Positions 3,601 through 36,907 of a stretch of 62,158 nucleotides of DNA are shown here, one piece after another. Below the pieces are notes generated by a model. That model had not been told where the DNA came from. It worked only from the letters and a program-made list of their open reading frames with translations, and searched no databases. Each line of letters begins with the position of its first letter. The first letter of the stretch is position 1. The stretch covers positions 1 to 62,158 of the forward strand of contig JAFGIK010000072.1 of NCBI GenBank assembly GCA_016929645.1. Direction: 5' to 3'. This DNA is from Candidatus Dojkabacteria bacterium (GTDB taxonomy: Bacteria > Patescibacteriota > Dojkabacteria > SC72 > JAFGCJ01). The position numbers and the translations under genes were made by a program.

Positions 3601-5650
3601 TATTGTCTAAATGATCCTTGATCTTTTTAAGGGCAGCTTTCTCTATCTCTTTCTCTTTGAATTTCTGGGGCTGAGATATTCTAAGGGTTAATGATTTTCC
3701 TGATTTCTTTATTGTACTACGAATCTTCTTTGATGTGTTGGCAGTTTTATCCATCAATGCTGTAAGTTGTTGCGAACCGAATCCTGTTCTATAAACCACT
3801 GTTGCCATTGCGATTAGTAAACCTCCCATAACGAGTATGACTGGAATGTTATCAAGAATACCGGTTTTGGGCTGTTCACAATTTTGAGCAACAATTATTG
3901 TGTTTTGTGTGGTCACTGGTGTCTCATCTGAAGGAGTAACTGTAACTCGATTTATTTGGTTACCTGTTACAGCGTTAGTTCCTGCAGTTGCTGTGAACCG
4001 TATAGTCATAGTTGCATTAGCTCCAAGAGTAAATCCTGTACCGCTATTTGACCATGTAATTAACTGACTATTCCCTGAAGTTTCAAGAGTGACTTGGCTG
4101 TCACTTACTGTTACACCGTTGATGTATGATGAATTCGCATTATATTGGAATCCCTGGGGTAGGGCATCTGATATTCCTCGAATATCTTTTGCTACGTTGC
4201 TAGCATTTCGAATTGTTACGGTTAGTGTTATTTGGTTGCTGCCTGCAACACGTTCGACGCAATCTGTTGATGTTTGAGTTGTGACTGACCATGCCCCATC
4301 AGAAGGCTGAGAAGGAGAACTGGAAGTATATTCGCAAGAAGTGTTACAACTACCTGAAGAATATGGAGTTCCTGCGGGACAAAGCAATGTGCCATCACAT
4401 TCTTCTCCTGTGTCACAAGTACCATTTCCGCAATCATCACTTTGTCTATATACAGCAACGCTTGATTCACAATAACTAAGTATTGTATCCAAATCGTCAA
4501 CAACGTTGGAAGAAGTAACTTTTATCTGACAATTTCTTCTAATTTCTCCTTCGGGTAAGGTAAATTCTTTTCGAACTGTTGGCTGTTCTGTTGTAAATAC
4601 CTCTCCTGAACCAAGGTCTATTTGTCCATTACAATTTAGGTCCATACTCCATCCAAAAAGGTTAGCTGTGCCGTCATCTGGTTGGGCTGTTACCTCTATC
4701 GTGACTGGTGTTTCACCGTTTTCTGGAGCAATATCAATGCCAATACATTCTGCGTCATTAGTTGCATTTGGACCAACGATGTTGTTCTCTTCTTCTCCAG
4801 GAATAATTGCGGCATTTTCGTAATCTTCTTCGTTAAGGTTTAATTTAATAGGGCAAGCCTGCGCATCAGACCAGGAATCTTCACCTCCTGAGGTTGTTGT
4901 CTGACTGAATTTGACAGTGTAGATTCCTAGATTTGCAGGATCTACAAAGCTTTCCCAGTTTGTACTAAATTCTACTGTGTAAATTTTAAAATTTGTTCCT
5001 GCAATTTCTCTATCTACAGATGAGTGAATATTTGGATCATAATCGACAATAATTGGTTCCATTGCCTGGCCTCCATCAGGATTTTCAACTTCTATTCTTC
5101 CCTGAAGTAAGTCATTATTTCCATCTTGATTTAGAATTTGAAATTGTACAGAAAATATTACTGGTCCTGTCAGGCTCTCTGGTATAGTTTCTGGGATCAT
5201 TTTGCTTGAACTGCATTGGTTGTCACAGGTTGTATTGTCTACTGTTGAGGTTATCATCTCGTTGCATGCTGTGCATAACCGATTAGATTCATCTTCTGTG
5301 CATAAAGAGCTATTTGTCAGCGCATTACAAATTTCAGATGGTGCACTTTCGCATGTTGTTAGTGGAACCGAAAAATCAATATCTGATAATGTGAAGTTTT
5401 CTTCAGAAAATGTACAAGCACCGCTTGCACTGTCTGTTGAGCCAAGTGTTGGTATTGTTACTTTTTGACCTCGATTATTAGTATATTCAATGTAACATTT
5501 ACAACAACCAGAAGCATGTGTTTCCTGCGGATTAACATTCTTCGTCTGATTTATTGTATAGATGATAAAACCTGCTACGCCACCTAAAATGACTATAAGT
5601 AGGATTCCGCCAATAATGAGAATTTTATTTTTATTTGAACCTCCGGGCAT
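3590..5650 (-). CDS. Cys-rich cell-surface protein with DUF11-type repeat and LPXTG-like (QPKTG) C-terminal anchor
   Basis: 686-aa ORF with N-terminal TM helix (ILIIGGILLIVILGGVAGFIIY). Cys-rich modules include DDCGNGTCDTGEECDG. A DUF11-like repeat is present (ITLTVTIRNASNVAKDIRGISDALPQGFQY...ATMTIRFTATAGTN). The C-terminus has QPKTG (3860-3874), a 23-aa hydrophobic helix and a 66-aa basic tail. Confidence 0.6.
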   Translation of the reverse strand: MPGGSNKNKILIIGGILLIVILGGVAGFIIYTINQTKNVNPQETHASGCCKCYIEYTNNRGQKVTIPTLGSTDSASGACTFSEENFTLSDIDFSVPLTTCESAPSEICNALTNSSLCTEDESNRLCTACNEMITSTVDNTTCDNQCSSSKMIPETIPESLTGPVIFSVQFQILNQDGNNDLLQGRIEVENPDGGQAMEPIIVDYDPNIHSSVDREIAGTNFKIYTVEFSTNWESFVDPANLGIYTVKFSQTTTSGGEDSWSDAQACPIKLNLNEEDYENAAIIPGEEENNIVGPNATNDAECIGIDIAPENGETPVTIEVTAQPDDGTANLFGWSMDLNCNGQIDLGSGEVFTTEQPTVRKEFTLPEGEIRRNCQIKVTSSNVVDDLDTILSYCESSVAVYRQSDDCGNGTCDTGEECDGTLLCPAGTPYSSGSCNTSCEYTSSSPSQPSDGAWSVTTQTSTDCVERVAGSNQITLTVTIRNASNVAKDIRGISDALPQGFQYNANSSYINGVTVSDSQVTLETSGNSQLITWSNSGTGFTLGANATMTIRFTATAGTNAVTGNQINRVTVTPSDETPVTTQNTIIVAQNCEQPKTGILDNIPVILVMGGLLIAMATVVYRTGFGSQQLTALMDKTANTSKKIRSTIKKSGKSLTLRISQPQKFKEKEIEKAALKKIKDHLDNNED

Positions 5651-9634: not shown

Positions 9635-11428
9635 TTACCCCACCACCGCCTTAATCCTCTTTACTCCAGCGCCTACATTTTCCTGCTTTACTATTTTGAA
9701 GCTGCCAAGATCCTTGGTGTTTTGAACATGAGGGCCGCCGCAGATTTCTATAGAGATGTTTTTGTCGCCACGCCCGATAAAGTAGACTTTGACAATTTCG
9801 CCATATTTTTCTGTAAAAGCAGAGTGGGGTGCGAGTTCCAAAGCCTTTTGTTTGTCCATTTCTTCGAAATATACCTCAAGACCGGTGTTTATCTGTTCAT
9901 TTATGATATCTTCGACCTGTTTGACTTGTTCTGGTGTCAGCTTGGTATCATTCGGGAAATCAAACCTAAGCCGATCTGGATTAATGTTGCTTCCAAGCTG
10001 TTTTACGTGGTCTCCTAGGACTTTTCGTAATGCTGCGTTAAGCATATGGGTTGCCGTATGATATTTTTTTGACATTTCCGATGTATCAGCAAGGCCACCT
10101 TTGAAAAATCCTTTTGCTGCTGAGCGTGATTTTTCTTTATGTGAGTTGAAAGCATTTTCAAAATCTTCTGTGTCGATTTTATTAAGTCCTTTTTCTTCAA
10201 GAATTTCTTGAGTTATCTCAATTGGAAATCCATATGTCTCGTATAGATAAAATGCATCTTCTCCTGAAATTTTGTTATTTTCTTGAATAAATTTATCAAG
10301 TTTTTTCATGCCGTCGTTTATTGTTGCCTTGAATTTTGATTCTTCTTCTTTGATAACGTCAATAATTTGCTGTTTTTCATCGGCTAATTTTGGATAAATT
10401 GGGCTGAACTGATCAATTGCGACTGTTGCAACTGTATCGGATAGATTTTCAGTAATGCCTAGCTGTCTTGCATGTCGGACTGATCTGCGGATAAGTCGTC
10501 GAAGAATGTAGCTTTGCTCGGTTCTTCCTGGTGTAATACCATCCATTATCATCCATGTGGCAGCCTTTATGTGGTCAACGATAACTCTTTGTGATTTGGT
10601 GTTCTCGTTTGAGCTTATGCTCTTAACTTTTTCTAAAATTGGTAAATAAATGTCTGTGGAGAAAACGCTTTCTGTATTTTGCGAAATGTAAGCGTATCTA
10701 TCAAGACCTCCACCAAAATCAATATTATGTCGATCCAATTTTGAATAATTTCCATCTTTTTTGAGATATTCCATGAATACATTATTGCCAAGTTCTGTGT
10801 ATTTTCCGCATCCACAGCTAGTATTGCAATCAGGGTTGCATTTTGGTTTTCCCGTATCGTAAAAAAACTCAGAGCATGGGCCACATGGACCTCCGCTTTC
10901 AAGCTCCCACCAATTGTGTTTTTTGTTATCGCCAAGCGGTTGAATGCGCTCTTGTGCACCAACTTCTGCTGCTATTCCATAACTTTTGAAAATTTCTTTC
11001 CATGTGTCGATAGCACACTGATCTATTCCTATGTTTTTATCTCCTTCGTATACAGAAGCATAGATATTGCTAATATCAAAACCAAGCTCATTAATAAAAA
11101 ATTCTACAGACCATTGGAGAGCTTCTTTTTTAAAGTAATCATTTAAGGACCAATTTCCAAGCATTTCGAAACTTGTGCAATGAATATCATCTCCAACTTC
11201 GTCAATATCTATTGTTCGAATACATCGTTGGACATTTGTGAGTCTGGTGCCTGACGGGTGTTTTTCTCCAAGCAAAAATGGTACAAGCGGGACCATTCCT
11301 GCGTTAACGAAGAGCAGAGTAGGGTCATTCTCTGGTACTAGTGGAGAATTTGGAATTTCAATGTGACCTTTACTTATCATGAATTTGAGAAACTTCTCTC
11401 GTATCTCAAGGTAGCTTAATGTTTTCAT
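9635..11428 (-). CDS. alaS: Alanine--tRNA ligase, short form ending after the editing domain (no C-Ala domain)
   Basis: Class II AlaRS N-terminus (FLKFMISKGHIEIPNSPLVPENDPTLLFVNAGMVP, FEMLGNWS). Editing-domain motifs are HTATHMLNAALRKV and ICGGPHVQNTKDLGSFKIVKQENVGAGVKRIKAVVG, which lies at the very C-terminus. Length is 597 aa. Confidence 0.9.
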   Translation of the reverse strand: MKTLSYLEIREKFLKFMISKGHIEIPNSPLVPENDPTLLFVNAGMVPLVPFLLGEKHPSGTRLTNVQRCIRTIDIDEVGDDIHCTSFEMLGNWSLNDYFKKEALQWSVEFFINELGFDISNIYASVYEGDKNIGIDQCAIDTWKEIFKSYGIAAEVGAQERIQPLGDNKKHNWWELESGGPCGPCSEFFYDTGKPKCNPDCNTSCGCGKYTELGNNVFMEYLKKDGNYSKLDRHNIDFGGGLDRYAYISQNTESVFSTDIYLPILEKVKSISSNENTKSQRVIVDHIKAATWMIMDGITPGRTEQSYILRRLIRRSVRHARQLGITENLSDTVATVAIDQFSPIYPKLADEKQQIIDVIKEEESKFKATINDGMKKLDKFIQENNKISGEDAFYLYETYGFPIEITQEILEEKGLNKIDTEDFENAFNSHKEKSRSAAKGFFKGGLADTSEMSKKYHTATHMLNAALRKVLGDHVKQLGSNINPDRLRFDFPNDTKLTPEQVKQVEDIINEQINTGLEVYFEEMDKQKALELAPHSAFTEKYGEIVKVYFIGRGDKNISIEICGGPHVQNTKDLGSFKIVKQENVGAGVKRIKAVVG

Positions 11429-16466: not shown

Positions 16467-17303
16467 CTAAACTCTCTCTGCAATTACAATTAATCTCTGT
16501 GTTCCTATACCATTAGGTGTGCAAGTCATCAAGGTTATGGTTTCTTTTCCTGGGGTTCCAATAATGACTTCGAAATCTTTTGGGTCAATAACTTTTATCT
16601 TTTGAATAACATATTCCAAGTCTTCGCCATTTTTAGTTATTGTTACCGTATCGGCAATTTCGGTGTTTTCAAGTTTCGAAAAAACAGTCTCTACATTGTT
16701 TTGATTGGCCTGAAACCAGGAATCAACAGCACTGTGACCATAAATAAAAGAATTTCCACCGCCATCTCCTGGTATGACTGTGCCTTTAAAATGAGCCAGA
16801 CCTTTTTTTAATGCATTGTCGTAAACTTTTTCATCGTAGCTATCAACGTTCGGAGTTATTGGAACATTATTTATCCCAATGCTTGGAATACTCAAATACA
16901 TTGTATCGGAATAGTCTTCGTCAATGTAAATTTGACTATTGGCATTGTTTGCTGCTGATGCGATTTCTGGATTATAGTCAGGACTTACGTGTTGGATTAT
17001 ATTTTGAAAATAACTGATTCCTGGATCATAATATGGCAGCTCGTTTTTGGCTGGTGCCATTTCTTGTGATGTTGCTGGATCTTTAATATTGTTATTACTA
17101 TTTTCTCTTACTTTCGCTGAAAGTAAAGAGATTCCAATTGGAGCCAGTTGAGACAATAGTATTATTGAGCCTGAAATTGCAAGAACAGAAGAAAGAAAAA
17201 ACTTTGCTGATTTCAGCTTTTCTTTCTGATTCTCCTGTTTTTTTACCTTTTGTTCATCGATTAGCTCTGTATTTGTGTTGCTGGTACCAAAACTCATGTT
17301 CAT
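16467..17303 (-). CDS. Sortase family transpeptidase
   Basis: N-terminal TM helix is present. The catalytic His context is NSFIYGHSAV, the catalytic Cys motif is ITLMTCTPNG, and the conserved Arg is in GTQRLIVIAERV. Confidence 0.8.
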   Translation of the reverse strand: MNMSFGTSNTNTELIDEQKVKKQENQKEKLKSAKFFLSSVLAISGSIILLSQLAPIGISLLSAKVRENSNNNIKDPATSQEMAPAKNELPYYDPGISYFQNIIQHVSPDYNPEIASAANNANSQIYIDEDYSDTMYLSIPSIGINNVPITPNVDSYDEKVYDNALKKGLAHFKGTVIPGDGGGNSFIYGHSAVDSWFQANQNNVETVFSKLENTEIADTVTITKNGEDLEYVIQKIKVIDPKDFEVIIGTPGKETITLMTCTPNGIGTQRLIVIAERV

Positions 17304-18694: not shown

Positions 18695-18879
18695 ATTTGG
18701 GGAAGTATTTGCTGTCATGCTGATGATTGTTGCCGGCTTTGCTTTTGATACTATTGAAGAATCCTATATTTAATTATATTGCAAAACACTGAATCCTTTT
18801 ATAAAGGATCAGCTAAACTGCATCTTGTGTTGTTCGACCGTTCCTATATATATTTGTAGATACGACTGAGGGTAATAGA

Positions 18880-18917
18880 CTCCGGACGAGGTTTTGAGGA
18901 AACTTCCTCGTCCGGAG
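18880..18917. terminator. 12-bp perfect hairpin between convergent genes (dnaJ and the propeller-lipase gene)
   Basis: CTCCGGACGAGG (18880-18891) and CCTCGTCCGGAG (18906-18917) flank a 14-nt loop. There is no clear U-tract on either strand. Confidence 0.5.
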
Positions 18918-18931
18918 ATTGTTCATTAAAT

Positions 18932-21900
18932 CTAACTAGTAGTACTTCTTAGTACTAATGGAAGGTATATGAATTCCCTTTCTCGATACTCCACAACTCC
19001 ACTCCTGTTCAACATGTTGTCCTCGCTAAAGGCATAGATGACAGGAGTGATTGTGAGATCAACTGTGAATGGATCCGTGTATGATAAGAAGGTTGTTCCA
19101 TCAAGTGAGTATTTTGTATCCTTGACTCCTGATTCCAAATCTACTGCACTGATTGTAACAATTCCCTCTGTAACAGAGATCCCAACTGTTGGAGGTGTTA
19201 TGTCTACTCCGCTGCTGCCACTCAGTACAATGGTTGGTGTAATAATAGACTCAAATGTTCCATCTCCATTGGCATCGTAGTGGAGTATGTCTGTGTACGG
19301 AGTTGAGTAGAGAAGTAAACTTGTACTCACTGGGAGATTGAGATCCATGTATCTACTCACATATGTAGATGTAACTCCATCTCCAACCTGGATATCCAAA
19401 GCAGATAGAATATCAGATGTACTCCAAGTAGCTGTGAATGTCCCTGTCATTGGGTAGATTACCAGGTCGGCTCCTTCTCCAAGATTGTATGTAGTAACCT
19501 CAGGAACCTCTCCCACAAGACCAATAGAAGTGGAAATTGGGGCAGTTGAGTTTCCAAGTGAGTCTGAGATGATAGGGTTTGTTCCCCCGAGGATAGCTAC
19601 ATACTTCGAATCAGCGATGGTTGTCATTGTGATTGTTGATCCTACTTCCATAACGGAGCTTCTCTCTGTATCTGTGGCTCTTATCATACTCTCTCCACAT
19701 CCTGAACCTGACTCTAGAGATGAGACTATCCTATCAAGCATATACTGATCGGTGAGCATTCCTCCATGATCTACTGTTTTATCATTTGAAGACGTGAATG
19801 CACATAGGCTTGTACCTGGGGCATTGATGTTGTATCCATTTCCTATCCTTGAGAGACTCAAAAGAGGAACTGTTCCATCTCCCTGGACATTTGAGACTTC
19901 CATTACATTCCAGGTATGGCAGAGAGATGTTCCACCAAGGCATATGACAAATTTCTCTGCTTTCATGCTTCCTATTGTAGATGCTCCCTTCTTGATCCCC
20001 AGGAAATGGATATAATTTACTCCTGAGATGTCACCCCTCCAGTCATCCTGTCCGCTTGTTGAATGGAAATTGTACGATGTTGTTCCTGGGTAGAAGTAGT
20101 TTCTCCCATATCTCATATTCAAGAAGTTTCTGAATTGGGGATATGAATACTTCTCATTATCCTTTCCATTATTGTTGATATCCCACCCATTCTCAACAAG
20201 CACAGGTCCTCCACCCAGCTGGTAATAAGCTTCTCCTGGAATCAAATCATGAAGTCCAGGGAAGGATCCAGCTATGCGCTTAACCGTACTACTTTGCATT
20301 ATGGGTAATCCAGTCTTCCCTGTCTCCATAACATATACTGATTGAGGAGACCCTAACCATGGTGCTCCGACAGTGAGAAGGGTATCTACATTATTGGTAT
20401 AAGGATAGTTGAGTATGTATCTTCTCGCAACCACACTTCCCATACTGTGAGCTAAGATATCAACCTTTGTTCCTGGGTAGAATTGTTGTATACATTGCAT
20501 GTAGTTATAGAGTTGGGCAGTGGTAGAATCAATATCTTTTCTCCAGTCATATGGGAAGATGAAGAGTGATGGATTGTTTGGCGCTTGGGTCAGATCACAT
20601 CCAGCAGAAGTTCTTTTTGATGGATCAGTATCTCCTGAGTACTCCACGTATCCTGAGGTTGTCAATTTGTTGATTAAGGATGTGTAGATGTCGTTTGTTG
20701 CAACGGTTCTGAGGATGTCTGTAGGAACAATTCCATTTGATGGATCATCATCTGGGTAGAGGCTGAGCTTATTATGATTTCTAAATAGACCCAGCCACAG
20801 TTCTTTGTTTCCATCATTTTGGTCAACGAGCTTACTTCCCATGGTTCCAGGGATGAAGATGAGAGGGGTTTTGGGAGGTTGGGGTGTGATAGTTGTGTCC
20901 ACAACAAAGATGTCGTGTGTCTGATTAAAATCCCCTATGACAAGGTTTGAAGCTTCTGACGGAAAAGCAACATATCTTCCATCATTTGATATTGAGGGAG
21001 AATGAGAATAATCGTTTCCTAATTCTCCTGAAGAGGATACAGAAACAAGTTTTGTTTCTCCGGTTATCATATCATGAACAAAAACTTTCTCTATGCTATA
21101 CGTGTTTCCTGGAACAAGGTTTGTACTACGGGAAGAAAATGTAACAAATCTTCCGTCCTCGGAAACTGAGGGCAATCGGGAATATTCGTTACCTTGTTCT
21201 CCTGTGGAAGACACAGAGGCAAGCTTTGTTTCTCCGGTTACCTGATCGTGAATAAAAATATCTCCTCTATCATTAAAGTCGTTTGGAATAAGGTTTGTCG
21301 CACCTGAGGGAAAAACAATATATCTCCCATTATTTGAGATTGATATTTCCTCCAAGCCGTAAGTGTGATAATTTCCTTGTTCTCCGGAGGATGATACAGA
21401 GACAATCTTTGTCTCTCCTGTTGTCATATCATGAACAAAAACATCTGTGCTTTCATTTGTATCATTTGTGACAAGATTTGAAGCAATAGATTCGAAAGCT
21501 ATAAATCTCCCATCTTCCGATATTGAGGTAAATCCTGAGTACCCATCTCCTTTGACACCCTCAGAAGATACAGAGACAATCTTTGTTTCGCCTGTTGTCA
21601 TATCATGAACAAAAATATCCAAGCTACTATTTCCATGCTCTGGATCGAAATTTGTTGCATATGATTCGAATGCTACAAATTTTCCATCTCCTGAGATAGA
21701 AGGTATACGAGATTCAGAGTTTCCTTGTTCCCCAGAAGAAGATACCGAAACAAGTTTCGTCTCTCCTGTTTGCATATCATGGAGAAAGATATCGGTTTTT
21801 TCGTTAGAGTCGCCTAAAACAAGATTAGTAGCGTCCGATTGGAAAGTAATATATCTTCCATCATCGGAAATAGATGGAAGGGTAGATTTATCATTTCCTT

Positions 21901-22243
21901 GTTCTCCAGAAGAAGACACAGAAACAAGTTTCGTTTCTCCGGTTGTTATATCATGAACAAAAACGTCCGTAGTTCTATTTGTATCGTTTGTGACAAGATT
22001 TGAAGCACCCGAATTAAATGCGATAAATCTTTTATTTCCTGAAATTGAAGAACATCCTGAGTACCCATTCCCTTCAACTCCCTCCGACGACACCGACACC
22101 CTTCTAATATACGTCCCGCCAGCCTGGCTCAACTCTGCAGCCCTAACTCCTGACCTTGGAGCTTGTATCCCAATTATCTGGGTCAACATCATCAGTGCTA
22201 CAAAAATCGAAACTATCCTTAAAAACTTAGATCTAGTAAACAT
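18932..22243 (-). CDS. Secreted 7x PD40-type beta-propeller + LCAT/PGAP1-like alpha/beta-hydrolase (lipase/acyltransferase) + beta-rich C-terminal region
   Basis: 1103-aa ORF with AAGGAG 8 nt upstream of the ATG and signal peptide FLRIVSIFVALMMLTQIIGIQA. Seven repeats carry ...PSISxDGRxxAFxSxAxNLVxxDxNxxxDxFVHDxxTGETKLVSVSS.... Lipase motifs are PLIFIPGTMGSKL, DILAHSMGSVVARRY, QGDGTVPLLS and VDHGGM. Confidence 0.7.
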   Translation of the reverse strand: MFTRSKFLRIVSIFVALMMLTQIIGIQAPRSGVRAAELSQAGGTYIRRVSVSSEGVEGNGYSGCSSISGNKRFIAFNSGASNLVTNDTNRTTDVFVHDITTGETKLVSVSSSGEQGNDKSTLPSISDDGRYITFQSDATNLVLGDSNEKTDIFLHDMQTGETKLVSVSSSGEQGNSESRIPSISGDGKFVAFESYATNFDPEHGNSSLDIFVHDMTTGETKIVSVSSEGVKGDGYSGFTSISEDGRFIAFESIASNLVTNDTNESTDVFVHDMTTGETKIVSVSSSGEQGNYHTYGLEEISISNNGRYIVFPSGATNLIPNDFNDRGDIFIHDQVTGETKLASVSSTGEQGNEYSRLPSVSEDGRFVTFSSRSTNLVPGNTYSIEKVFVHDMITGETKLVSVSSSGELGNDYSHSPSISNDGRYVAFPSEASNLVIGDFNQTHDIFVVDTTITPQPPKTPLIFIPGTMGSKLVDQNDGNKELWLGLFRNHNKLSLYPDDDPSNGIVPTDILRTVATNDIYTSLINKLTTSGYVEYSGDTDPSKRTSAGCDLTQAPNNPSLFIFPYDWRKDIDSTTAQLYNYMQCIQQFYPGTKVDILAHSMGSVVARRYILNYPYTNNVDTLLTVGAPWLGSPQSVYVMETGKTGLPIMQSSTVKRIAGSFPGLHDLIPGEAYYQLGGGPVLVENGWDINNNGKDNEKYSYPQFRNFLNMRYGRNYFYPGTTSYNFHSTSGQDDWRGDISGVNYIHFLGIKKGASTIGSMKAEKFVICLGGTSLCHTWNVMEVSNVQGDGTVPLLSLSRIGNGYNINAPGTSLCAFTSSNDKTVDHGGMLTDQYMLDRIVSSLESGSGCGESMIRATDTERSSVMEVGSTITMTTIADSKYVAILGGTNPIISDSLGNSTAPISTSIGLVGEVPEVTTYNLGEGADLVIYPMTGTFTATWSTSDILSALDIQVGDGVTSTYVSRYMDLNLPVSTSLLLYSTPYTDILHYDANGDGTFESIITPTIVLSGSSGVDITPPTVGISVTEGIVTISAVDLESGVKDTKYSLDGTTFLSYTDPFTVDLTITPVIYAFSEDNMLNRSGVVEYREREFIYLPLVLRSTTS
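20880..22111 (-). repeat. Seven tandem intragenic repeats (about 58 aa, about 174 nt each) encoding propeller blades
   Basis: The recurring protein block ...VFVHDMTTGETKLVSVSSSGEQGN... appears seven times. The DNA recurs in diverged form (e.g. acaagtttcgtctctcctgt, acaagtttcgtttctccggt and acaatctttgtctctcctgt on the + strand). Confidence 0.7.
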
Positions 22244-22652
22244 CGTAAACTCCTTTTTGATTGTTTGAATTGGTTAATTCTGAAACATGACTGCCATAGA
22301 ATTGATTAGGTTTACCTTTTTGTTACATTTTTTTACCTCCAAACTAGCTAGATTGTAAAAGAACTCGGAACAAAACTGGCATAATAAATTTGAATTTCTA
22401 ATATGCCATGAGATTAATTTGTTCCTTGCTTAAGCCTACAAGAGAGGTTTTTGACAGATCCATAGCAAAAAGGTGATAAAAAAGTGACAAAAAATCAAGA
22501 AAAGTCGAAAAGATTTTGTATACTTATCTATATCGAATGATGGGGGAAAACTACTATAATCAGCAAAAAGTATAGAGGAATAGTAGTCGTTATGGGATTG
22601 TTGAATAATCCAGAATGAACATTTAAAAATCCTATTATTCAGGTGTTATTTA

Positions 22653-23741
22653 TTATCTATTTTCTTCACAAATTTCCTTCAGTTTCCAACAAAGTATATC
22701 GATAGCTTCTTTTTTTAACCTCTTAAAAGATCTATCGCTTGTGGCTGAATATTCACTTAATTTAGTATAAGGAAATCTAGGTTTAAAGTCTTCTGTCAAT
22801 TTCTCCCTGGCGCTTCTCGTAAATACATCAAATCCTAAATCCCACATTATTTGTGATTCCGTTGATTCTTTGTATGCGATCATTTTTACTATCTCATACC
22901 TTAATCTTTGGGTAGTTCTTTGACCTTCATCTTTTCTCGGCTTCAGGTATTCTATTAGTTCATCTAAGATTTCTCTAAATGCAATAACTTCAGTTGTTGC
23001 ATTTTTTCTTGCCCTTTCTTTTACTACTTCTAATTCCAATAAATTACTCTTTGCCAATTTAATTGGATTGTTATAGTTTTTTAGCACTTTAAAGATTTCT
23101 TCTTCAATATTTTTAACATCCAATTTAACTGACTTAGTTTTCTTTTTTTCGTACAACCTTGAATTGTACATTGCAAATGAAATCTGATTTGAAAATATTC
23201 GAATTAGTGAGTAGTCTTCATTTGAAATTTTGTCTTCGTTCCATGATAGAGCTAAACACCCCAGTTCAGTATCTTTTATTATAAGAGGGACACTAACTGC
23301 GAGCTTGATTTTTGCCAATTTCTGTACAAGTTCTGCTTGTCGTTTGCTTAACATTGGTATGGAAATATCATAAAGATTTTTTGTGAAAATAGGCTTGTTT
23401 CTCTGTAATGACTTCCACATAAAGTTCTCTCCACCGTTTTGTTTACCAGTATAAAGCTTAACTACAGAGAGATCTTTTCCCAGGATTTTTTTCAAATAGA
23501 TGATAACATGAGAATAAACATTTACCCTATTTAGTTCGAGTGTTTTATCACTTTCATTCCAAATCCATATTGAAGAAGAGGAAACTTTCAAAATAGAAAA
23601 TAACTTCTCAATTATAGAGTCAATGATGGAATCTAGTTTAAGATTACCGGCAAGCGCTTCGTTTATTTCTTCTATTTCATCTAGAGCTTGAGATGTCTGT
23701 GTTTTCTTTTCTTCAATGTTTAATTTATCTTCCATTTTCAA
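22653..23741 (-). CDS. GAF-domain protein with uncharacterised helical C-terminal region (putative regulator)
   Basis: GAF-like pattern (SSSIWIWNESDKTLELNRVNV...LAVSVPLIIKDTELGCLALSWNEDKISNEDYSLIRIFSNQISFAMYNSRLYE). The C-terminal 170 aa are helical, ending SDRSFKRLKKEAIDILCWKLKE, which resembles sigma region 4 or an HTH. This resemblance is weak. Confidence 0.5.
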   Translation of the reverse strand: MKMEDKLNIEEKKTQTSQALDEIEEINEALAGNLKLDSIIDSIIEKLFSILKVSSSSIWIWNESDKTLELNRVNVYSHVIIYLKKILGKDLSVVKLYTGKQNGGENFMWKSLQRNKPIFTKNLYDISIPMLSKRQAELVQKLAKIKLAVSVPLIIKDTELGCLALSWNEDKISNEDYSLIRIFSNQISFAMYNSRLYEKKKTKSVKLDVKNIEEEIFKVLKNYNNPIKLAKSNLLELEVVKERARKNATTEVIAFREILDELIEYLKPRKDEGQRTTQRLRYEIVKMIAYKESTESQIMWDLGFDVFTRSAREKLTEDFKPRFPYTKLSEYSATSDRSFKRLKKEAIDILCWKLKEICEENR

Positions 23742-23879
23742 TAATGTTATAACAAAGGAAGATTAAATTACAATTTGGTGTATTCTGTCAATGTCAATGA
23801 AAGGGTTACGCAACTATTTATGACTGGGCTTTATCTACCTGATGACTTTACAGTTGCTATTTCCTTGTTCGGATTTCGG

Positions 23880-23888
23880 TGCTATAAT
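23880..23888 (+). promoter_or_regulatory. Extended -10 promoter TGcTATAAT upstream of nusA
   Basis: TG at 23880-81 and TATAAT at 23883-88. The same TGnTATAAT form recurs at 46888 and 49835. Confidence 0.45.
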
Positions 23889-23915
23889 TACATTAATTCT
23901 AATGGTACTTGTATT

Positions 23916-23947
23916 AAAGGTGAGTTATATCTCACCTTTTTGTTTTT
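23916..23947 (+). terminator. Intrinsic terminator/attenuator in the nusA leader
   Basis: AAAGGTGAG (23916-24), loop TTATAT, CTCACCTTT (23931-39), then TTGTTTTT. It lies about 28 nt after the extended -10 promoter and about 60 nt before the nusA ATG. Confidence 0.65.
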
Positions 23948-24008
23948 AGATAGCTTTAACAATTTTTGATCGAGTACACAATCTTATTTTAATTTATTTT
24001 TAGTTGAA

Positions 24009-27431: not shown

Positions 27432-28841
27432 ATGGGTTTACCATTAGATCTTTTTTCTAAGGTCAAAAAGAAAATTTTAGATTCGAAAAACGTATTACTC
27501 TGTATAAATACCAGTGCTTCTTTCGACACTCAAATTTCTGGGTTAGCACTTATTATTTACCTTAAAGATCATAAGAAAAAGTTATCAGTATTTTTTAATG
27601 GAGAACTTTCATCAAAGATGGAAGGCTTCTATTCTGCCTACGAATTTGACAGGATTACTGAGCTTAAGCCTTTGAATTATGTTATTACGATTGATCATAA
27701 GGCTGGTAATATTGAAAAAGTTAGTTATGACGATAAAGATGGTAAATTTAGTCTTTTTATTACTCCTTCAGAAAGTGATTCTGAGTTTGATTTTACTAAT
27801 GTTGCCTATGATAAATCCGGTGGTCAGTATGATCTGATTATTACTTTAGGCGTTAGATCATTATCATGGCTTGGTAACATTTATGAGAAGAATAAATCTA
27901 TATTTGATAATGAAAAAATTATTAATATCAACAATCTATCAGGTAACCAGGATTATGGAAACTATAAACTTGTTGATACAGATAAATCTGTTGCTGAAAC
28001 TGTTTATAGACTTTTACAACAGAACTCAACAGAGTCTTCATCAACTATTGTTCAGTTATTGTTAATGGGATTAATGGATAAGTTCCAATTGTTGCGAATG
28101 ACTGATTACAAGATTTCGACTGTTGAGACAATGATGTCTTTTGTTAGAGCAGGTGGTGATATAAAACGGGCTGTAGATGAAGTTTATTTCAATAAGGATT
28201 TCAAAGGATTTAGTCTTGTTCAAAGGGTTTTTAATAATTTGAAAATAGATAAAAAATCAAAAATTTGCTGGTCTGGTGTTACGACCTTTGATATCAAACA
28301 ATGTGGTATTGGTAAAAAAGATATTCTTCTTGATGGACGAGTTGTTTTTAATATTTCCAATAACTTTAATCTTGCATTTGTTCTTTACGAGGTTGAGGAG
28401 GATGAGGTTTGGGGTGAAGTAGATTCTAATAATGAAAATATCGATGTTAAAAAACTGTTCAACGTGATGAATGCCGTTGGTGACGAAAAAAGAGTCAAAT
28501 TTATAATTAAGGGTAAAAGTCTTGCTCAAGTAGAAACAGAAATTTTAGAATTCATAAAATCTAAGTTACACCTAGAAGAAATAAATCCTGAAGTAAATAT
28601 TACCTCTAATGCGGTTTCTGCAAATATCCCAGAGTCCAGTTCCGGCTCGCAAAATGCACAAAATAATGGAAGTATTGAAACCGGTCAGGCGAATGCCGAT
28701 TCAATTAATGAATCTTCAAGTTATAACGCTGATAAGCCGGAGGGCTTGACAAATGGTGACAATATAAGTAAAAATAGAACTACCCCGATTAATAGGAATA
28801 GCGATAGTCTTGTAATTCCGCCCCCGGTTAACTCGATTTAG
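27432..28841 (+). CDS. DHH/DHHA1-like (NrnA-like) protein with degenerate catalytic motifs and low-complexity tail
   Basis: The layout parallels NrnA. VLLCINTSASFDTQISGLALIIYLKDHKKKLSV sits where H-x-x-P-D-G-D-A-x-G-S is expected. ITIDHKAGN replaces DHH, and VRAGGDIKRA replaces GGGH. The C-terminal 90 aa are S/N-rich. Confidence 0.45.
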   Translation: MGLPLDLFSKVKKKILDSKNVLLCINTSASFDTQISGLALIIYLKDHKKKLSVFFNGELSSKMEGFYSAYEFDRITELKPLNYVITIDHKAGNIEKVSYDDKDGKFSLFITPSESDSEFDFTNVAYDKSGGQYDLIITLGVRSLSWLGNIYEKNKSIFDNEKIININNLSGNQDYGNYKLVDTDKSVAETVYRLLQQNSTESSSTIVQLLLMGLMDKFQLLRMTDYKISTVETMMSFVRAGGDIKRAVDEVYFNKDFKGFSLVQRVFNNLKIDKKSKICWSGVTTFDIKQCGIGKKDILLDGRVVFNISNNFNLAFVLYEVEEDEVWGEVDSNNENIDVKKLFNVMNAVGDEKRVKFIIKGKSLAQVETEILEFIKSKLHLEEINPEVNITSNAVSANIPESSSGSQNAQNNGSIETGQANADSINESSSYNADKPEGLTNGDNISKNRTTPINRNSDSLVIPPPVNSI

Positions 28842-29265: not shown

Positions 29266-29388
29266 ATTTAGGCCATGTTTTCTTGGTATAGCAATCGTTG
29301 TATTATTCTTATAAAATATAACTAATTATTTTTTTGGAAAATTCAGCATTTTTGCTAATTGATTATTTTAATTTTAATAAATTTTATA

Positions 29389-31557
29389 ATGACTGATAGT
29401 ATTTTTGATGAGATTTTGTATGAATTTGAGTTTCAAGGTAAGAAGTGTTCATTCTCAAGAGGTAAATATGCTCGAAGATCTAATTCGGCTATTTTTGCGA
29501 AAATGGGGGATACTGTTGTTCTTGCTACTGTAGATTACGATAAATCCTCAGAGGTTCCAGATTTTTTCCCATTAACAGTTGAATATATTGAAAGAATGTT
29601 TGCTGGTGGAGTGATTTCTTCTTCTCGATTTATAAAACGAGAAGGTCATCCATCAACAGAGGCAGTTTTGAGCTCAAGGATGATTGACAGATCTATACGA
29701 TCGAGATTTCCATCTGACTTTAGAATGCCAGTACAAGTAGTATTAACTGTTCTAAGTTTTGATCCAGAATGTGATCCAGTAATTCTTGGGATGAGTGCAA
29801 TATCGTTGGCATTAAGTCTATCAGATGTACCTTTTGATGGTCCTATTGCTGGAGTTAGAATGGGTTATGACGGAGAGAAGGTAATTCCTTTTATAAAAAA
29901 TTTGGCGGATACAGACCAGAGTATGGAAGATCGTGGTTCTAAACTCAACCTCGTGATCGGTACTGACGGAGAAATTGTAACAATGATTGATTCTGATAGT
30001 GAAGAAGTATCTGAGGATGTCATTATTAATGGAATGAATGAGGGACTGGAAGTATCTAAAGAGCTAATAAATGCACAAAAGAAATTTATTGAACTTTTTA
30101 CAGAGAAGAATCCTGATTTTCATAAAGCAACATATGAACCATACGTAATTCCTAAAGATTTGATAAGCGAGATTAAGAAAAACAAGAAATCCCAGATGGA
30201 ATCCATACTTGATCTTGATAACATGACAGAAAAAGATAAAGCAAATGAAGAGCTCAAAGCTTTGGCATTCAAGGAATACGAAGGTAAATATTCTAAAAGT
30301 CAGATTAGTGATGCTTATGATTATGTGTCGAAGTTGATTGTTCGCGATTGGATTGTAAATGATAAAAGAAGGACTGATGGTAGAGCTCTTGATGAGATTA
30401 GGCCAATTGCGATGGAAATAGGCGTGCTTCCAAGAGCACATGGATCTGCGATGTTTAATCGAGGAAATACTCAAGCGATAACCGTAACGACATTAGGTTC
30501 AGGAAGGCTTGCGCAGTTAGTTCAGGGTATGGAGGGTGAAGGTACAAGAAGATATATGCATCACTACAATGCACCAGATTATACAGTTGGATGTGCAGGT
30601 CAGTATAAGTATTTTCCAAAAAGAAGAGAACTTGGTCATGGAGCGTTAGCAGAGAAAGCGTTAATGCATGTTATTCCTGGCCAGGAAGAATTTCCTTATA
30701 CAATCAGAGTAGTTAGTGAAATTATGTCTCAATCGGGATCCAGCTCAATGGCTTCTGTATGTGGATCAACATTATCTTTGATGGATGCTGGTGTTCCAAT
30801 TAAAAAACCAGTAGCTGGAATTGCAATTGGCGTTGTAACAGGCGAAACTATGGATGACTTTACAATTCTTACAGATATTGCTGAATATGAGGATTTCTTT
30901 GGTGATATGGATTTTAAGGTAGCAGGAACAAGAGATGGTATTACGGCAATTCAAATGGATAATAAACTTAATGGTATTTCAGTTAAGATTTTTGAAGAAG
31001 CTTTGGAAGCTGCTAAAAAAGCGAGATTCCAGCTTATAGATATGATAGAGGACACAATAAGTGCACCTAAAGAACACCTTTCTATTTATGCACCAAAGAT
31101 TGAAACAGTAAAAATTCCAACAGATAAAATTGGAATGTTGGTTGGCCCTGGAGGCAAGAATATCAAAGCATTAATTGAAAGTACAGGAACCGACATAGAG
31201 ATTGATGATAATGGTTTAGTTTCTGTTTCTTCTATTGATGAAGAGAGTAGGAAAAAGGCAATTGATCATATTAAATCAATGTTTGAAGAGCCTGAAGTAG
31301 GGAAAATTTATCGCGGAACTGTCGGGAAAATTATGGATTTCGGAGTATTTGTTGATATTAATCCTAACTTCTCTGGACTTGTTCATATTTCTGAGCTTTC
31401 AGATAGCTTTGTGAAAGACCCGAGTACTGTTGTGAAAGAGGGACAACAAGTTGATGTTATGTTTATTGGTCTTGATGATAAGGGTCGTGCTAAAATGTCT
31501 ATAAAGAAAGTTAAGAAAAATAAAGATAATGGATCAAACCCTTCAAAAACAGATTAA
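29389..31557 (+). CDS. pnp: Polyribonucleotide nucleotidyltransferase (PNPase)
   Basis: Two RNase PH domains (FPLTVEYIERMFAGG; RTDGRALDEIRPI; GSSSMASVCGSTLSLMDAGVPIKKPVAGIAIG; DFLGDMDFKVAGT-like FFGDMDFKVAGT), plus KH and S1 domains. ATG at 29389 is preferred over the TTG at 29359. Confidence 0.95.
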   Translation: MTDSIFDEILYEFEFQGKKCSFSRGKYARRSNSAIFAKMGDTVVLATVDYDKSSEVPDFFPLTVEYIERMFAGGVISSSRFIKREGHPSTEAVLSSRMIDRSIRSRFPSDFRMPVQVVLTVLSFDPECDPVILGMSAISLALSLSDVPFDGPIAGVRMGYDGEKVIPFIKNLADTDQSMEDRGSKLNLVIGTDGEIVTMIDSDSEEVSEDVIINGMNEGLEVSKELINAQKKFIELFTEKNPDFHKATYEPYVIPKDLISEIKKNKKSQMESILDLDNMTEKDKANEELKALAFKEYEGKYSKSQISDAYDYVSKLIVRDWIVNDKRRTDGRALDEIRPIAMEIGVLPRAHGSAMFNRGNTQAITVTTLGSGRLAQLVQGMEGEGTRRYMHHYNAPDYTVGCAGQYKYFPKRRELGHGALAEKALMHVIPGQEEFPYTIRVVSEIMSQSGSSSMASVCGSTLSLMDAGVPIKKPVAGIAIGVVTGETMDDFTILTDIAEYEDFFGDMDFKVAGTRDGITAIQMDNKLNGISVKIFEEALEAAKKARFQLIDMIEDTISAPKEHLSIYAPKIETVKIPTDKIGMLVGPGGKNIKALIESTGTDIEIDDNGLVSVSSIDEESRKKAIDHIKSMFEEPEVGKIYRGTVGKIMDFGVFVDINPNFSGLVHISELSDSFVKDPSTVVKEGQQVDVMFIGLDDKGRAKMSIKKVKKNKDNGSNPSKTD

Positions 31558-35287: not shown

Positions 35288-36907
35288 TTATGTTTGTATA
35301 TTTTTTGTGTCCTTATTTGTCTGGCTTGAATCTTGGTAGTACTCTTCATCTCCAACTTTTCCCTCAATTGCTGCAAAAAACTTTACTCTCTTTTTGCCAA
35401 TAAACATCTCAAATTGTGCTTGAAGTCTTGGAAGTAGGTAGTATGTCCAGATAAGAAGTAGTTCAAGGAACGGTTCGAATGTCCACCAGAAAGCTTTGAA
35501 AAATATTGATTTTTCTTTTGGAGGAGCACCAAAATATTTCCAGATGAAATATTTTCCCGGAATTTGCAATAATACAGTAAATGTCATAAGGTAGCTTGAT
35601 ATTCTTGGTAGATTATATGATATAGCTGAATATTCAAGCTCTTGATTGAATAAGTTAAGTATTGGAATGGTAAATGCCATTAATATACTGAAGGTCATTA
35701 TTATGTTGTAGACTCGAGCCAAGACTCCGAATGCTTTTTCAATTTTGATCCATAATGGAATTTTCCTGTTCCATATAATGCCTTGAATGGCGACTGACAT
35801 GATTATTGCACCCCAACCCCAGCGAATCTGCTGCTTATAAAGGCCTTTTAAAGCATCAAATGTATTTTTGCCTTCGACACAGTCCATCAGCAGAGGTAGA
35901 TAGAATACTTCTCCAGAAAACTTGCCATTCAAGTGTAAAAATGCGTTCCAGTAAAAAAAAGTATCCTCTGCTCCAAGAGAAGCATCCCAAAAATCAATTT
36001 GTTCTAGCAGGTGGAAGGTTGCACTGTAATTGGAAAAACTTTGTTTTTTGCCTTTGTCGTATATCCATTCTGCAACAACACCAAGAGTTAATGCGCTGCT
36101 GAAAACTCTAGTAAGTGCAGGTACATCCCAATAGTTATTAGAATAAATAAGAACTCCTGCTGAGAAGAATTTGTAATATCTATCTGGATCAGTGAGGTAT
36201 TTATAGGTTAAAGCAGAAAAATGCTTAGGATGATATTTCCCATCGCTATCACTTTTGGTAAATATGACATGATGAGGATTGATTTTTAACTTGTGAAGTT
36301 TCTTGGAAGATTCTATTCCTGCCCATCTTAAATTTGCACAAGCGTCGCCCATTATTTCTCCAGGTATTCCATATGGATGATAAAAATCCCAAATGTCGTA
36401 AAATTGGTTTTTAAATTCCTTTTTAATTTGAGCTGTCACATCGTATCTTTCTGGTCCAGCCCGTTGTTCGCATGCCAGGACAAGTATAAACCTATTTTTA
36501 TATGGATAATCCTGATTTGCAATTGTTTTTATTGTTCTTCTTAAATATTCAAGAGGTTCCTTGTAAGTTGGGATGAAAACCAAATGATAAAGTTCTTTAA
36601 TATTTTTGGGAAGCTTTTGGGGATTTGGTAGATTTTTCAAATTTAATGAATTGATTTTGGTTACCCAGTCAGTTTCTTCGTCACGTTTTTGATAGGCAGT
36701 CGTAAAAAAAAGCGCTGTAAGTCGTTGTAATCCTTTAAATAATACAAAAACAGATATAAATGAAAGATAAACAAGTAAGACTTCGTAAATGCCTAGTAGA
36801 GAAGTCCAAACAGGAGAAGTAATAAGGATTATGGTAATAATGCCAGGCAACATTCGATAAAAAGCAAAGCTTTTAGTCTGGGTATTGTATGGCTTAATCC
36901 GTTTCAT
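35288..36907 (-). CDS. Membrane-embedded processive family-2 glycosyltransferase (polysaccharide synthase)
   Basis: N-terminal TM helices are followed by a GT2 core with the ordered motifs VLACEQRAG, KSDSDGKY (DxD), LGAEDTFF (ED) and QQIRWGWGA (QxxRW). C-terminal TM helices follow. Confidence 0.7.
   Translation of the reverse strand: MKRIKPYNTQTKSFAFYRMLPGIITIILITSPVWTSLLGIYEVLLVYLSFISVFVLFKGLQRLTALFFTTAYQKRDEETDWVTKINSLNLKNLPNPQKLPKNIKELYHLVFIPTYKEPLEYLRRTIKTIANQDYPYKNRFILVLACEQRAGPERYDVTAQIKKEFKNQFYDIWDFYHPYGIPGEIMGDACANLRWAGIESSKKLHKLKINPHHVIFTKSDSDGKYHPKHFSALTYKYLTDPDRYYKFFSAGVLIYSNNYWDVPALTRVFSSALTLGVVAEWIYDKGKKQSFSNYSATFHLLEQIDFWDASLGAEDTFFYWNAFLHLNGKFSGEVFYLPLLMDCVEGKNTFDALKGLYKQQIRWGWGAIIMSVAIQGIIWNRKIPLWIKIEKAFGVLARVYNIIMTFSILMAFTIPILNLFNQELEYSAISYNLPRISSYLMTFTVLLQIPGKYFIWKYFGAPPKEKSIFFKAFWWTFEPFLELLLIWTYYLLPRLQAQFEMFIGKKRVKFFAAIEGKVGDEEYYQDSSQTNKDTKNIQT

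Follow-up and report, generated by a model that had tools for sequence, protein, structure and literature searches.

Bacteria of the candidate phyla radiation (CPR, or Patescibacteria) are thought to obtain their membrane lipids from other cells, and the enzymes that they use are largely unidentified. Is one of these enzymes encoded in contig JAFGIK010000072.1 of a Candidatus Dojkabacteria genome (assembly GCA_016929645.1), the 62,158-nt stretch of DNA that was analysed here and is referred to as the window? The gene in question, at positions 18932-22243 of the minus strand, is a single uninterrupted open reading frame (ORF) for 1103 residues with an ATG start. An earlier note on this DNA, made from the sequence alone, had described its product as a secreted beta-propeller fused to a lipase, and as a device for taking lipids from a host membrane or damaging it. 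The protein, called the lipase below, is a member of a known enzyme kind inside a large, experimentally untouched bacterial subfamily. Its hydrolase is very probably a serine lipid esterase of the LCAT/LPLA2/Tle4 superfamily, as judged from sequence comparison and a structural model, and a role in host-lipid harvest or attack is plausible by analogy with its relatives. With a predicted export signal, an intact catalytic triad, a high-confidence model, a likely horizontal gain at a defined site and a large family behind it, the lipase is a concrete candidate for lipid acquisition in CPR bacteria.

The C-terminal 649 residues of the protein (455-1103), which comprise the hydrolase and two Ig-like domains, were used as a query and are referred to as the module. 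The hydrolase carries, in order, the motifs PLIFIPG (residues 460-466), YDWR (565-568), AHSMG (598-602), GDGTVP (788-793) and His826 within VDHGG; the nucleophile elbow, the GDGTVP stretch and the histidine motif quoted in the earlier note are all present. Pfam assigns the region to LCAT (PF02450) with 56.8 bits against a cutoff of 21, in a partial match that places residues 557-709 on model positions 84-239 of 392. A single-sequence search of the PDB retrieved human LCAT (E 1.4e-4), and a profile of 67 relatives matched Tle4 (2.6e-19), LPLA2 (4.9e-15) and LCAT (3e-12). In the profile alignment to LPLA2 (4x90), PLIFIPG falls on PVVLVPG, YDWR on YDWR and AHSMG on AHSMG, while GDGTVP falls on GDGTVN and the invariant histidine on SEH, the motifs that hold the catalytic Asp and His of LPLA2. 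The earlier note had made its reading depend on the catalytic residues aligning with those of LCAT-type enzymes, and Ser600, Asp789 and His826 do align with the LPLA2 triad. These three residues, as well as the D, W and R of YDWR, are kept in 100% of an alignment of 69 module sequences; the Y is kept in 99%.

An AlphaFold2 model of the module, obtained on the 69-sequence alignment, has a mean predicted local distance difference test value (pLDDT) of 92.5 and a predicted template modelling score (pTM) of 0.92. DSSP analysis of this model revealed a classical nucleophile elbow, in which a strand (140-145 in module numbering) and a helix (147-158) flank core residue 146, which is Ser600. When the model was compared with the PDB using Foldseek, LPLA2 ranked first (E 1.8e-12; template modelling score, TM, 0.65 on the target), Tle4 second (E 2.6e-11) and LCAT third (E 5e-10; TM 0.62). 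BlEst2, Legionella PlaB, PhaZ7 and family I lipases followed at a distance. The Pfam score, the PG and YDWR motifs, the order and alignment of Ser, Asp and His, and the overall fold with its insertions all place the hydrolase in the LCAT family, and the LCAT-like identity proposed earlier holds on these profile and fold matches. The PGAP1-like label of the same note is not borne out. The Pfam match to PGAP1 (PF07819) is marginal (26.3 bits versus a cutoff of 24.3) and covers only 52 residues around the serine (582-633), and PGAP1 structures appear in the profile search at E ~2e-5 over ~38 residues only, far behind LCAT, LPLA2 and Tle4. As no match extends beyond the nucleophile-elbow region, membership in this group, that of the glycosylphosphatidylinositol (GPI) inositol deacylase type, was rejected.

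On sequence and model, the lipase mechanistically most resembles LPLA2, LCAT and Tle4. LPLA2 (group XV phospholipase A2; PDB 4x90-4x97) and LCAT (PDB 4xwg, 6mvd) have the same fold with LCAT-type insertions (TM 0.62-0.65 over the whole target) and the same order of motifs, namely the PG motif, YDWR, AHSMG, the GDGTV acid and the histidine. The lipase differs from them in that it is bacterial and only ~16-17% identical, and in that it adds two conserved C-terminal Ig-like domains and an N-terminal propeller. Its likeness to both enzymes is known from sequence and predicted fold, and there is no evidence that it depends on sterols or apolipoproteins. Tle4, also called TplE (PA1510; PDB 4r1d), is a type VI secretion system (T6SS) effector from Pseudomonas aeruginosa and a bacterial GXSXG phospholipase of the same superfamily that acts on the membranes of other cells. 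Although Tle4 is similar to the lipase in sequence and fold, it is delivered by the T6SS and paired with the immunity protein Tli4, whereas the lipase has a Sec-type N-terminus. No secretion-system gene, T6SS genes such as vgrG and hcp included, and no Tli4-like immunity gene was found in the window. In addition, neither the propeller nor the two Ig-like domains are present in Tle4.

The beta-rich tail behind the hydrolase spans ~240 residues, and not ~350 as had been estimated, and consists of two tandem Ig-like beta-sandwiches. These were also obtained in a separate AlphaFold2 model of residues 860-1103 (pLDDT 89.9). Foldseek searches with the C-terminal model returned generic Ig, FN3 and bacterial-Ig matches only, the best being the Ca2+-binding BIg domains of the adhesin SiiE (E 8.9e-4). 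Of the Ig/chitobiase-C-like module that had been proposed for the end of the protein, the Ig-like part is found in the model; an identity with chitobiase-C is not shown, and Pfam returned no match of this kind. The second sandwich barely reaches the cutoff of the OmpL47-type domain (NCBIfam NF047446; 40.4 bits versus 40, residues 1024-1083). Within it, D1075 and N1079 are kept in 99% of the 69 relatives and are invariant in a 36-sequence C-terminal alignment. In the first sandwich, D990 is invariant among the 69 sequences and lies in YDANGDG, for which the family consensus is YDxDGDG, a pattern resembling the DxDxDG Ca2+ loop. Judged by this motif, YDANGDG is a probable loop for Ca2+ binding; the weak similarity in fold to SiiE would agree with this. 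The high pTM of the 649-residue model suggests that the sandwiches pack in a fixed manner against the hydrolase.

The propeller consists of seven consecutive repeats in strict register, six of 58 residues and one of 61, with VSVSS anchors at residues 49, 107, 165, 223, 281, 342 and 400 and a mean pairwise identity between blades of 55%. The tandem array of ~58-residue PD40/TolB-type repeats described earlier is therefore present, and the Pfam PD40 score (52 bits versus a cutoff of 20.9) places the region among the seven-bladed propellers of this type at the sequence level. A homologue search with the whole protein was swamped by the propeller: more than 7,000 homologues cover exactly its residues, in combination with every kind of C-terminal partner, and all matches cover 36-40% of the query. 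The search was repeated with residues 455-1103. In this search, ~60 proteins cover 96-99% of the module at 31-41% identity, and many of these relatives are only ~670 residues long, that is, a signal peptide followed by the module alone.

A HMMER search of 1.84 billion cluster representatives with the module yielded 4,439 matches at E<=1e-3, 1,697 at <=1e-10 and 456 at <=1e-30. Of the 150 best matches, almost all extend over the entire module or what is left of it, a few being fragments or split matches. Proteins with the module have lengths of 576 to 5,006 residues. In representatives annotated with Pfam, the domains N-terminal to it include propellers or beta-repeats (PD40, PQQ/BamB-like, NHL, SBBP, LVIVD), a DUF1080 lectin-like domain and DUF3466/HAF repeats. 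Because of this variety, the hydrolase and the two Ig-like domains can be regarded as the constant unit, and the N-terminal domain as exchangeable. The propeller is, for the same reason, most likely an exchangeable accessory domain for binding or targeting that lies outside the catalytic machinery.

Among the relatives are bacterial proteins annotated as "lipase/acyltransferase domain-containing" (for instance P0121, P0122, P0428 and P0410, and those at the Kouleothrix, Pyrinomonadaceae and Caldilinea loci L001-L006), which align colinearly over the full module, with 31-44% identity and invariant catalytic residues. These uncharacterised proteins are encoded in non-CPR-like DNA of 44-66% GC, and most have other N-terminal domains or none. 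The propeller subtype of the lipase was found in only 2 of 231 family members, P0428 (1274 residues) and P0410 (1171 residues). Both are colinear with the lipase from residue 48/49 to 1086-1099, at ~37% identity. By sequence comparison, the exact combination of propeller and module is rare, not unique. By the survey of phylogenetic distribution that the earlier note had called for, the architecture is not without precedent, as the module occurs in hundreds of clusters behind many N-terminal partners and two proteins share the propeller subtype. A further protein, P0177, was considered as another example of the same fusion and rejected, since its PD40 propeller shows no significant similarity to that of the lipase (E >= 0.12); it represents an independent fusion of PD40 and LCAT domains. 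On the contig that encodes P0177 (locus L082; 58% GC), the gene for a second alpha/beta-hydrolase (Abhydrolase_6; 3879-5042) lies 7 nt downstream, which suggests a two-hydrolase operon in that organism.

The N-terminus of the lipase has basic residues (R4, K6 and R9), a hydrophobic segment at ~7-29, which a hydropathy scan identified as the sole strongly hydrophobic stretch of the protein, and the sequence VRA|AE thereafter. The signal peptide claimed earlier is present in the sense of an export-type N-terminus, and the features fit either a Sec signal peptide or an uncleaved signal anchor. The hydrolase contains six cysteines, of which at least two pairs are kept in the family consensus. Because of the signal or anchor segment, the conserved cysteine pairs and the Ig-like domains, we infer that the protein is extracytoplasmic. 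The possibility of a sortase-anchored surface protein was also considered. It was rejected because the C-terminus of the lipase, which ends in ...EFIYLPLVLRSTTS, has no sorting signal (LPXTG-like motif, hydrophobic segment and basic tail) and no transmembrane segment.

Where did the gene come from? The window is chromosomal and has a GC content of ~35%. Its origin from a CPR bacterium, a premise of the earlier note, is supported by polynucleotide phosphorylase (PNPase), as every named homologue among the top 120 is from CPR/Patescibacteria, the best being from Candidatus Dojkabacteria (~60% identity). In contrast, the nearest named full-length relatives of the module (28-37% identity) are found in Pyrinomonadaceae and other Acidobacteriota, Kouleothrix, Ca. 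Ribeiella, Oscillochloris, Caldilinea and Myxococcales. LCAT-like hydrolases of other CPR bacteria (Saccharibacteria, Levybacteria, Daviesbacteria, Nomurabacteria and Microgenomates; for instance P0184, P0192 and L015-L020) have the same type of module, often behind an N-terminal propeller or lectin-like domain, and come from organisms with the same lifestyle, but are just 24-28% identical to the window copy. In a neighbour-joining tree of the module (31 sequences, 584 columns), CPR and non-CPR copies are split with 100/100 bootstrap support. The window copy falls within the non-CPR group (Chloroflexota, Acidobacteriota), where it is sister to P0121 and P0122 (62/100) and the only CPR-encoded member of the clade in the tree sample. 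Judged by these closest relatives, the enzyme type is in itself not a CPR adaptation.

Composition and gene order point the same way. The lipase gene has a GC content of 41%, and its GC content at third codon positions (GC3) is 0.341, compared with 0.263 +/- 0.025 in 30 other ORFs of the window. Three relatives (L085, L086 and L087), with PNPases ~60% identical, share the gene order of the window: Big_7 protein (which lies at the edge of the locus in two of these relatives) - solute-binding protein - sortase - dnaJ - ... - nusA - ylxR - infB - x - rpsO - pnp - Lon-like - ... - RNase J - ... - ftsA. In the window, the gap between dnaJ and nusA (18695-24008, 5.3 kb) holds the lipase gene and a GAF-domain gene. 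The corresponding gap is empty in L087, and contains a 61-residue ORF in L086 and two unrelated genes, a DUF362/Fer4 gene and an MFS gene, in L085. Given the non-CPR relatives, the split in the tree, the raised GC3 and a gap that is empty or differently filled in the relatives, the lipase gene was probably acquired horizontally, the donor being a non-CPR lineage of higher GC whose copies resemble those of Chloroflexota or Acidobacteriota. Its intermediate GC content suggests partial amelioration. Contig chimerism was considered as a source of the foreign gene and found unlikely, as 41% GC is far under the donor-like 44-66% and close to the host, and the flanks lie in conserved CPR synteny. The dnaJ-nusA gap is, in its own right, a variable insertion site in this CPR lineage.

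The excess of GC3 is unevenly distributed: hydrolase (0.386) and Ig-like part (0.362) account for it, whereas the propeller (0.285) is near the local norm. This contrast suggests that the propeller did not arrive with the module, and that the two may be of different origin or age. On the other hand, P0428 and P0410 are colinear with the lipase over both parts, which suggests that these arrived together.

What might a CPR bacterium do with such an enzyme? The composite explanation that we favour, and regard as reasonably likely, is that the lipase is a Sec-exported, horizontally gained enzyme of the LCAT/LPLA2/Tle4 type that cleaves the acyl esters of other cells' membranes. The gene would have passed from a higher-GC non-CPR lineage into an ultra-small, Dojkabacteria-like CPR bacterium, inserting between dnaJ and nusA. 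Its product would be exported via Sec and then either released or, if its N-terminal anchor stays uncleaved, retained on the cell surface. The propeller in front would dock or target the enzyme, apart from catalysis, and the catalytic unit would be the ~650-residue module, in which two Ig-like sandwiches are packed on a Ser600-Asp789-His826 hydrolase with an LCAT-type insertion and cap. By analogy with LPLA2, LCAT and Tle4, the enzyme would cleave phospholipid acyl esters at the interface. Phospholipase-A-type cleavage would take place in the membranes of the host or of neighbouring bacteria, and a bacterium unable to make lipids would take up the released fatty acids and lysolipids; damage to the target membrane would be a side effect. 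That the enzyme is indeed used on foreign membrane phospholipids is possible, and we propose this part, which draws on its characterised relatives, tentatively. The concept of lipid scavenging by CPR phospholipases is not new and is already in print: Patescibacteria without fatty-acid synthesis appear to recycle the lipids of other bacteria, and a lysophospholipase acquired by horizontal gene transfer in Paceibacteria and phospholipases in Vampirococcus have been described (PMC12455944).

Several points weigh against this explanation. The Asp/His segment alone aligns weakly to LPLA2 (domain E 0.35), so the assignment of these two residues follows from motif identity together with the fold match. 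The tree of the module is a neighbour-joining tree only. No lipid-uptake or acyl-activation genes are present in the window, where the neighbours of the lipase gene are housekeeping genes, and 62 kb is too short to judge the fatty-acid and phospholipid synthesis of the genome. In the literature searched, no experimentally characterised bacterial member of the module family was found that would inform on activity, substrate or localisation. Moreover, the closest relatives occur in bacteria of ordinary genome size, which presumably make their own lipids, so that harvesting host lipids would not be the ancestral role. The enzyme type is commonest outside the CPR, for example in Chloroflexota, Acidobacteriota and Myxococcales, and there probably serves as a nutritional or surface lipase.

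This last point leads to an unlikely alternative, in which the presumed role in the donor was kept and the lipase serves nutrition as an unspecialised extracellular lipase or esterase. It would act on free environmental lipids or polyesters, such as triacylglycerols, wax esters, polyhydroxybutyrate (PHB)-like or cutin-like polymers and detrital membranes, with the propeller and Ig-like domains merely anchoring it to particles or to the cell surface, and no host would be targeted. The distribution of the closest relatives in Chloroflexota, Acidobacteriota and Myxococcales is consistent with this, as are adhesin-like additions in the family (cadherin-like and Ig-like domains, PEP-CTERM) and the lower-ranked fold matches, which include family I triacylglycerol lipases, the PHB depolymerase PhaZ7 and a cholesterol esterase. 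However, the best sequence and fold matches, LPLA2, Tle4 and LCAT, all act on membrane or lipoprotein phospholipid. CPR bacteria are, moreover, reported to rely on the lipids of other cells (PMC12455944), and even a nutritional lipase in such an organism would mostly meet the membranes of those cells. The prominence of Tle4, as top profile match and second-best fold match, could instead indicate a dedicated toxin against bacteria or the host: secreted via Sec, but otherwise a functional counterpart of Tle4/TplE, for which lysis or permeabilisation is primary and nutrient release secondary. Tle4 is an antibacterial phospholipase that damages bacterial membranes, compromising their integrity, and it requires an immunity protein (PMC6560169). 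LCAT-family enzymes also rupture membranes in apicomplexan egress, being membrane-lytic phospholipases in Plasmodium (PMC10325081) and Toxoplasma (PMC5830472), and are likewise membrane-lytic in the breakdown of autophagic bodies in plants (PMC13377104). Together with Tle4, these enzymes equally lend plausibility to the membrane-directed role that we favour. We nevertheless consider a toxin quite improbable, given that the intergenic regions flanking the lipase gene contain no credible small ORF for an immunity or partner protein, that the window provides no T6SS or other delivery-system context, and that family members are commonly stand-alone secreted enzymes in ordinary bacteria. On general grounds, a CPR epibiont that killed its host quickly would lose its source of lipids.

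Two further alternatives concern the chemistry. LCAT and LPLA2, the closest eukaryotic structural relatives, both transacylate, LPLA2 being described as using lipophilic alcohols as acceptors (PMC6027918). The lipase could therefore be an acyltransferase that transfers acyl chains of donor phospholipids onto a lipid, glycolipid or protein acceptor on the bacterium's own surface, building or remodelling the envelope from foreign lipids, as would fit an organism that assembles its membranes from scavenged lipids. Nothing in the sequence separates a transferase from a hydrolase, but the closest bacterial relative, Tle4, is described as a phospholipase and no acceptor-related genes lie nearby, and we regard a transferase as very improbable. 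The succession of a seven-bladed propeller and an alpha/beta-hydrolase superficially recalls S9 peptidases, in which case the propeller would gate the active site as an integral substrate filter and peptides would be possible substrates; the best NCBIfam match of the propeller is in fact the propeller region of Dpp5. That match scores only 52.7 bits against a cutoff of 900 and covers blades only, and the hydrolase is of LCAT type with no S9 match in Pfam. As the module occurs alone and behind many unrelated N-terminal domains, the propeller is not an obligatory part of the active site, and gating of the prolyl-oligopeptidase or DPP type is effectively refuted, with barely any probability left to it.

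Beyond this organism, the exchange of propellers or lectin-like domains in front of an unchanging lipase module suggests a general means of directing lipases to surfaces. In a bolder version of the role that we favour, which we consider unlikely, the module would define a widespread, so far unstudied class of "addressable" extracellular phospholipases in which the exchangeable N-terminal propeller or lectin-like domain chooses the cell surface for docking. A Dojkabacteria-like CPR bacterium would have captured such an enzyme complete from a free-living donor; the propeller would bind the host envelope, and the lipase would strip acyl chains or lysolipids from the host membrane. The propeller-lipase would then provide, at the molecular level, a direct means of the lipid parasitism that has long been inferred for CPR bacteria. 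In any case, characterising one member would annotate the whole module family, with its hundreds of clusters. Even if the protein were an ordinary nutritional lipase, its horizontal gain at dnaJ-nusA would be a tidy case of gene transfer in a streamlined genome.

Table 1. Features of the lipase gene, its product and its surroundings. Coordinates are those of the window; CDS, coding sequence.
Feature	Residues	Coordinates	Strand	Basis or remark
Lipase CDS, complete, 1103 aa, stop codon included	1-1103	18932..22243	-	ORF list
Shine-Dalgarno-like AAAGGAG		22250..22256	-	6 nt 5' of ATG, read directly from sequence
Sec-type signal peptide or N-terminal signal anchor (predicted)	1-36	22136..22243	-	Hydropathy scan
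Seven-bladed PD40/TolB-type beta-propeller, 7 repeats of 58-61 aa	37-461	20861..22135	-	Repeat register, Pfam PD40
LCAT/LPLA2/Tle4-like alpha/beta-hydrolase with insertion and cap regions	462-851	19691..20860	-	Pfam, profile, AlphaFold2, Foldseek
YDWR motif, hallmark common to LCAT and LPLA2	565-568	20540..20551	-	Conservation, alignment
Ser600 codon, predicted nucleophile in AHSMG, strand-Ser-helix elbow	600	20444..20446	-	Conservation, LPLA2 alignment, DSSP
Asp789 codon, predicted catalytic acid in GDGTVP	789	19877..19879	-	Conservation, aligned to LPLA2 GDGTV
His826 codon, predicted catalytic base	826	19766..19768	-	Conservation, aligned to His of LPLA2 SEH
First Ig-like beta-sandwich	863-1014	19202..19657	-	AlphaFold2 models, Foldseek
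YDANGDG in first Ig-like domain	989-995	19259-19279	-	D990 invariant, motif
Second Ig-like beta-sandwich, OmpL47-type domain	1015-1090	18974..19201	-	NCBIfam NF047446, AlphaFold2 model
12-bp GC-rich hairpin, 14-nt loop, perfect stem		18880..18917	-	Between convergent dnaJ and lipase genes
GAF-domain protein, 362 aa		22653-23741	-	Directly upstream of lipase gene
Sortase gene		16467-17303	-	Two genes from lipase gene

The coordinates of the relevant features are collected in Table 1. ORFs on the opposite strand that overlap the lipase CDS are short and have no support, and a tblastn search of the window revealed neither a second copy of the gene nor a second LCAT-like gene. The neighbours of the lipase gene are dnaJ, on which it converges, the GAF-domain gene, nusA and the sortase gene. 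A spacer of 409 nt separates it from the co-oriented GAF-domain gene upstream, and the gene looks monocistronic. A scan for promoter and terminator consensus sequences returned nothing above chance; the hairpin at 18880-18917, 14 nt past the lipase stop codon, was instead found by eye and then folded. It is predicted to have a stability of -23.2 kcal/mol (z = -3.9), which none of 200 shuffled sequences reached, and is probably a terminator for dnaJ, the lipase gene or both. It was not called by the consensus scan because of its long loop and the lack of a clear U-tract on the minus strand.

The GAF-domain protein could be a regulator. Its C-terminal half (~200-362) has no Pfam match, and its gene, unlike the lipase gene, has a native-like GC content of 31%. 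The other genes of the window include holA, a LytR-CpsA-Psr gene, mltG, alaS, infB, pnp, ftsA, uvrD and those for the solute-binding protein, the Lon-like AAA protein and RNase J. The sole sortase-type tail in the window (LPQTS, a hydrophobic segment and a short tail) belongs to a 603-residue purple-acid-phosphatase-N/fn3 protein (55445-57256, plus strand). The alanyl-tRNA synthetase (9635-11428, minus strand), which at 597 residues is much shorter than typical bacterial enzymes, comprises the catalytic core and tRNA_SAD, and presumably has no C-terminal domain. Five ORFs of 415-787 residues (3590-5650, 27432-28841, 35288-36907, 37047-38294 and 40986-43349) lack Pfam matches at E<=1e-5; hydrophobic N-termini occur in several of them. 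The last of these, which follows ftsA, has positional counterparts in the relatives, of which that in L086 gives a weak match to Baseplate_J. The PNPase ORF (29359-31557, plus strand) starts with TTG and encodes 732 residues, whereas the database protein of the same gene has 722 (P0222, 99% coverage); the true start is probably located 10 codons downstream of the TTG.

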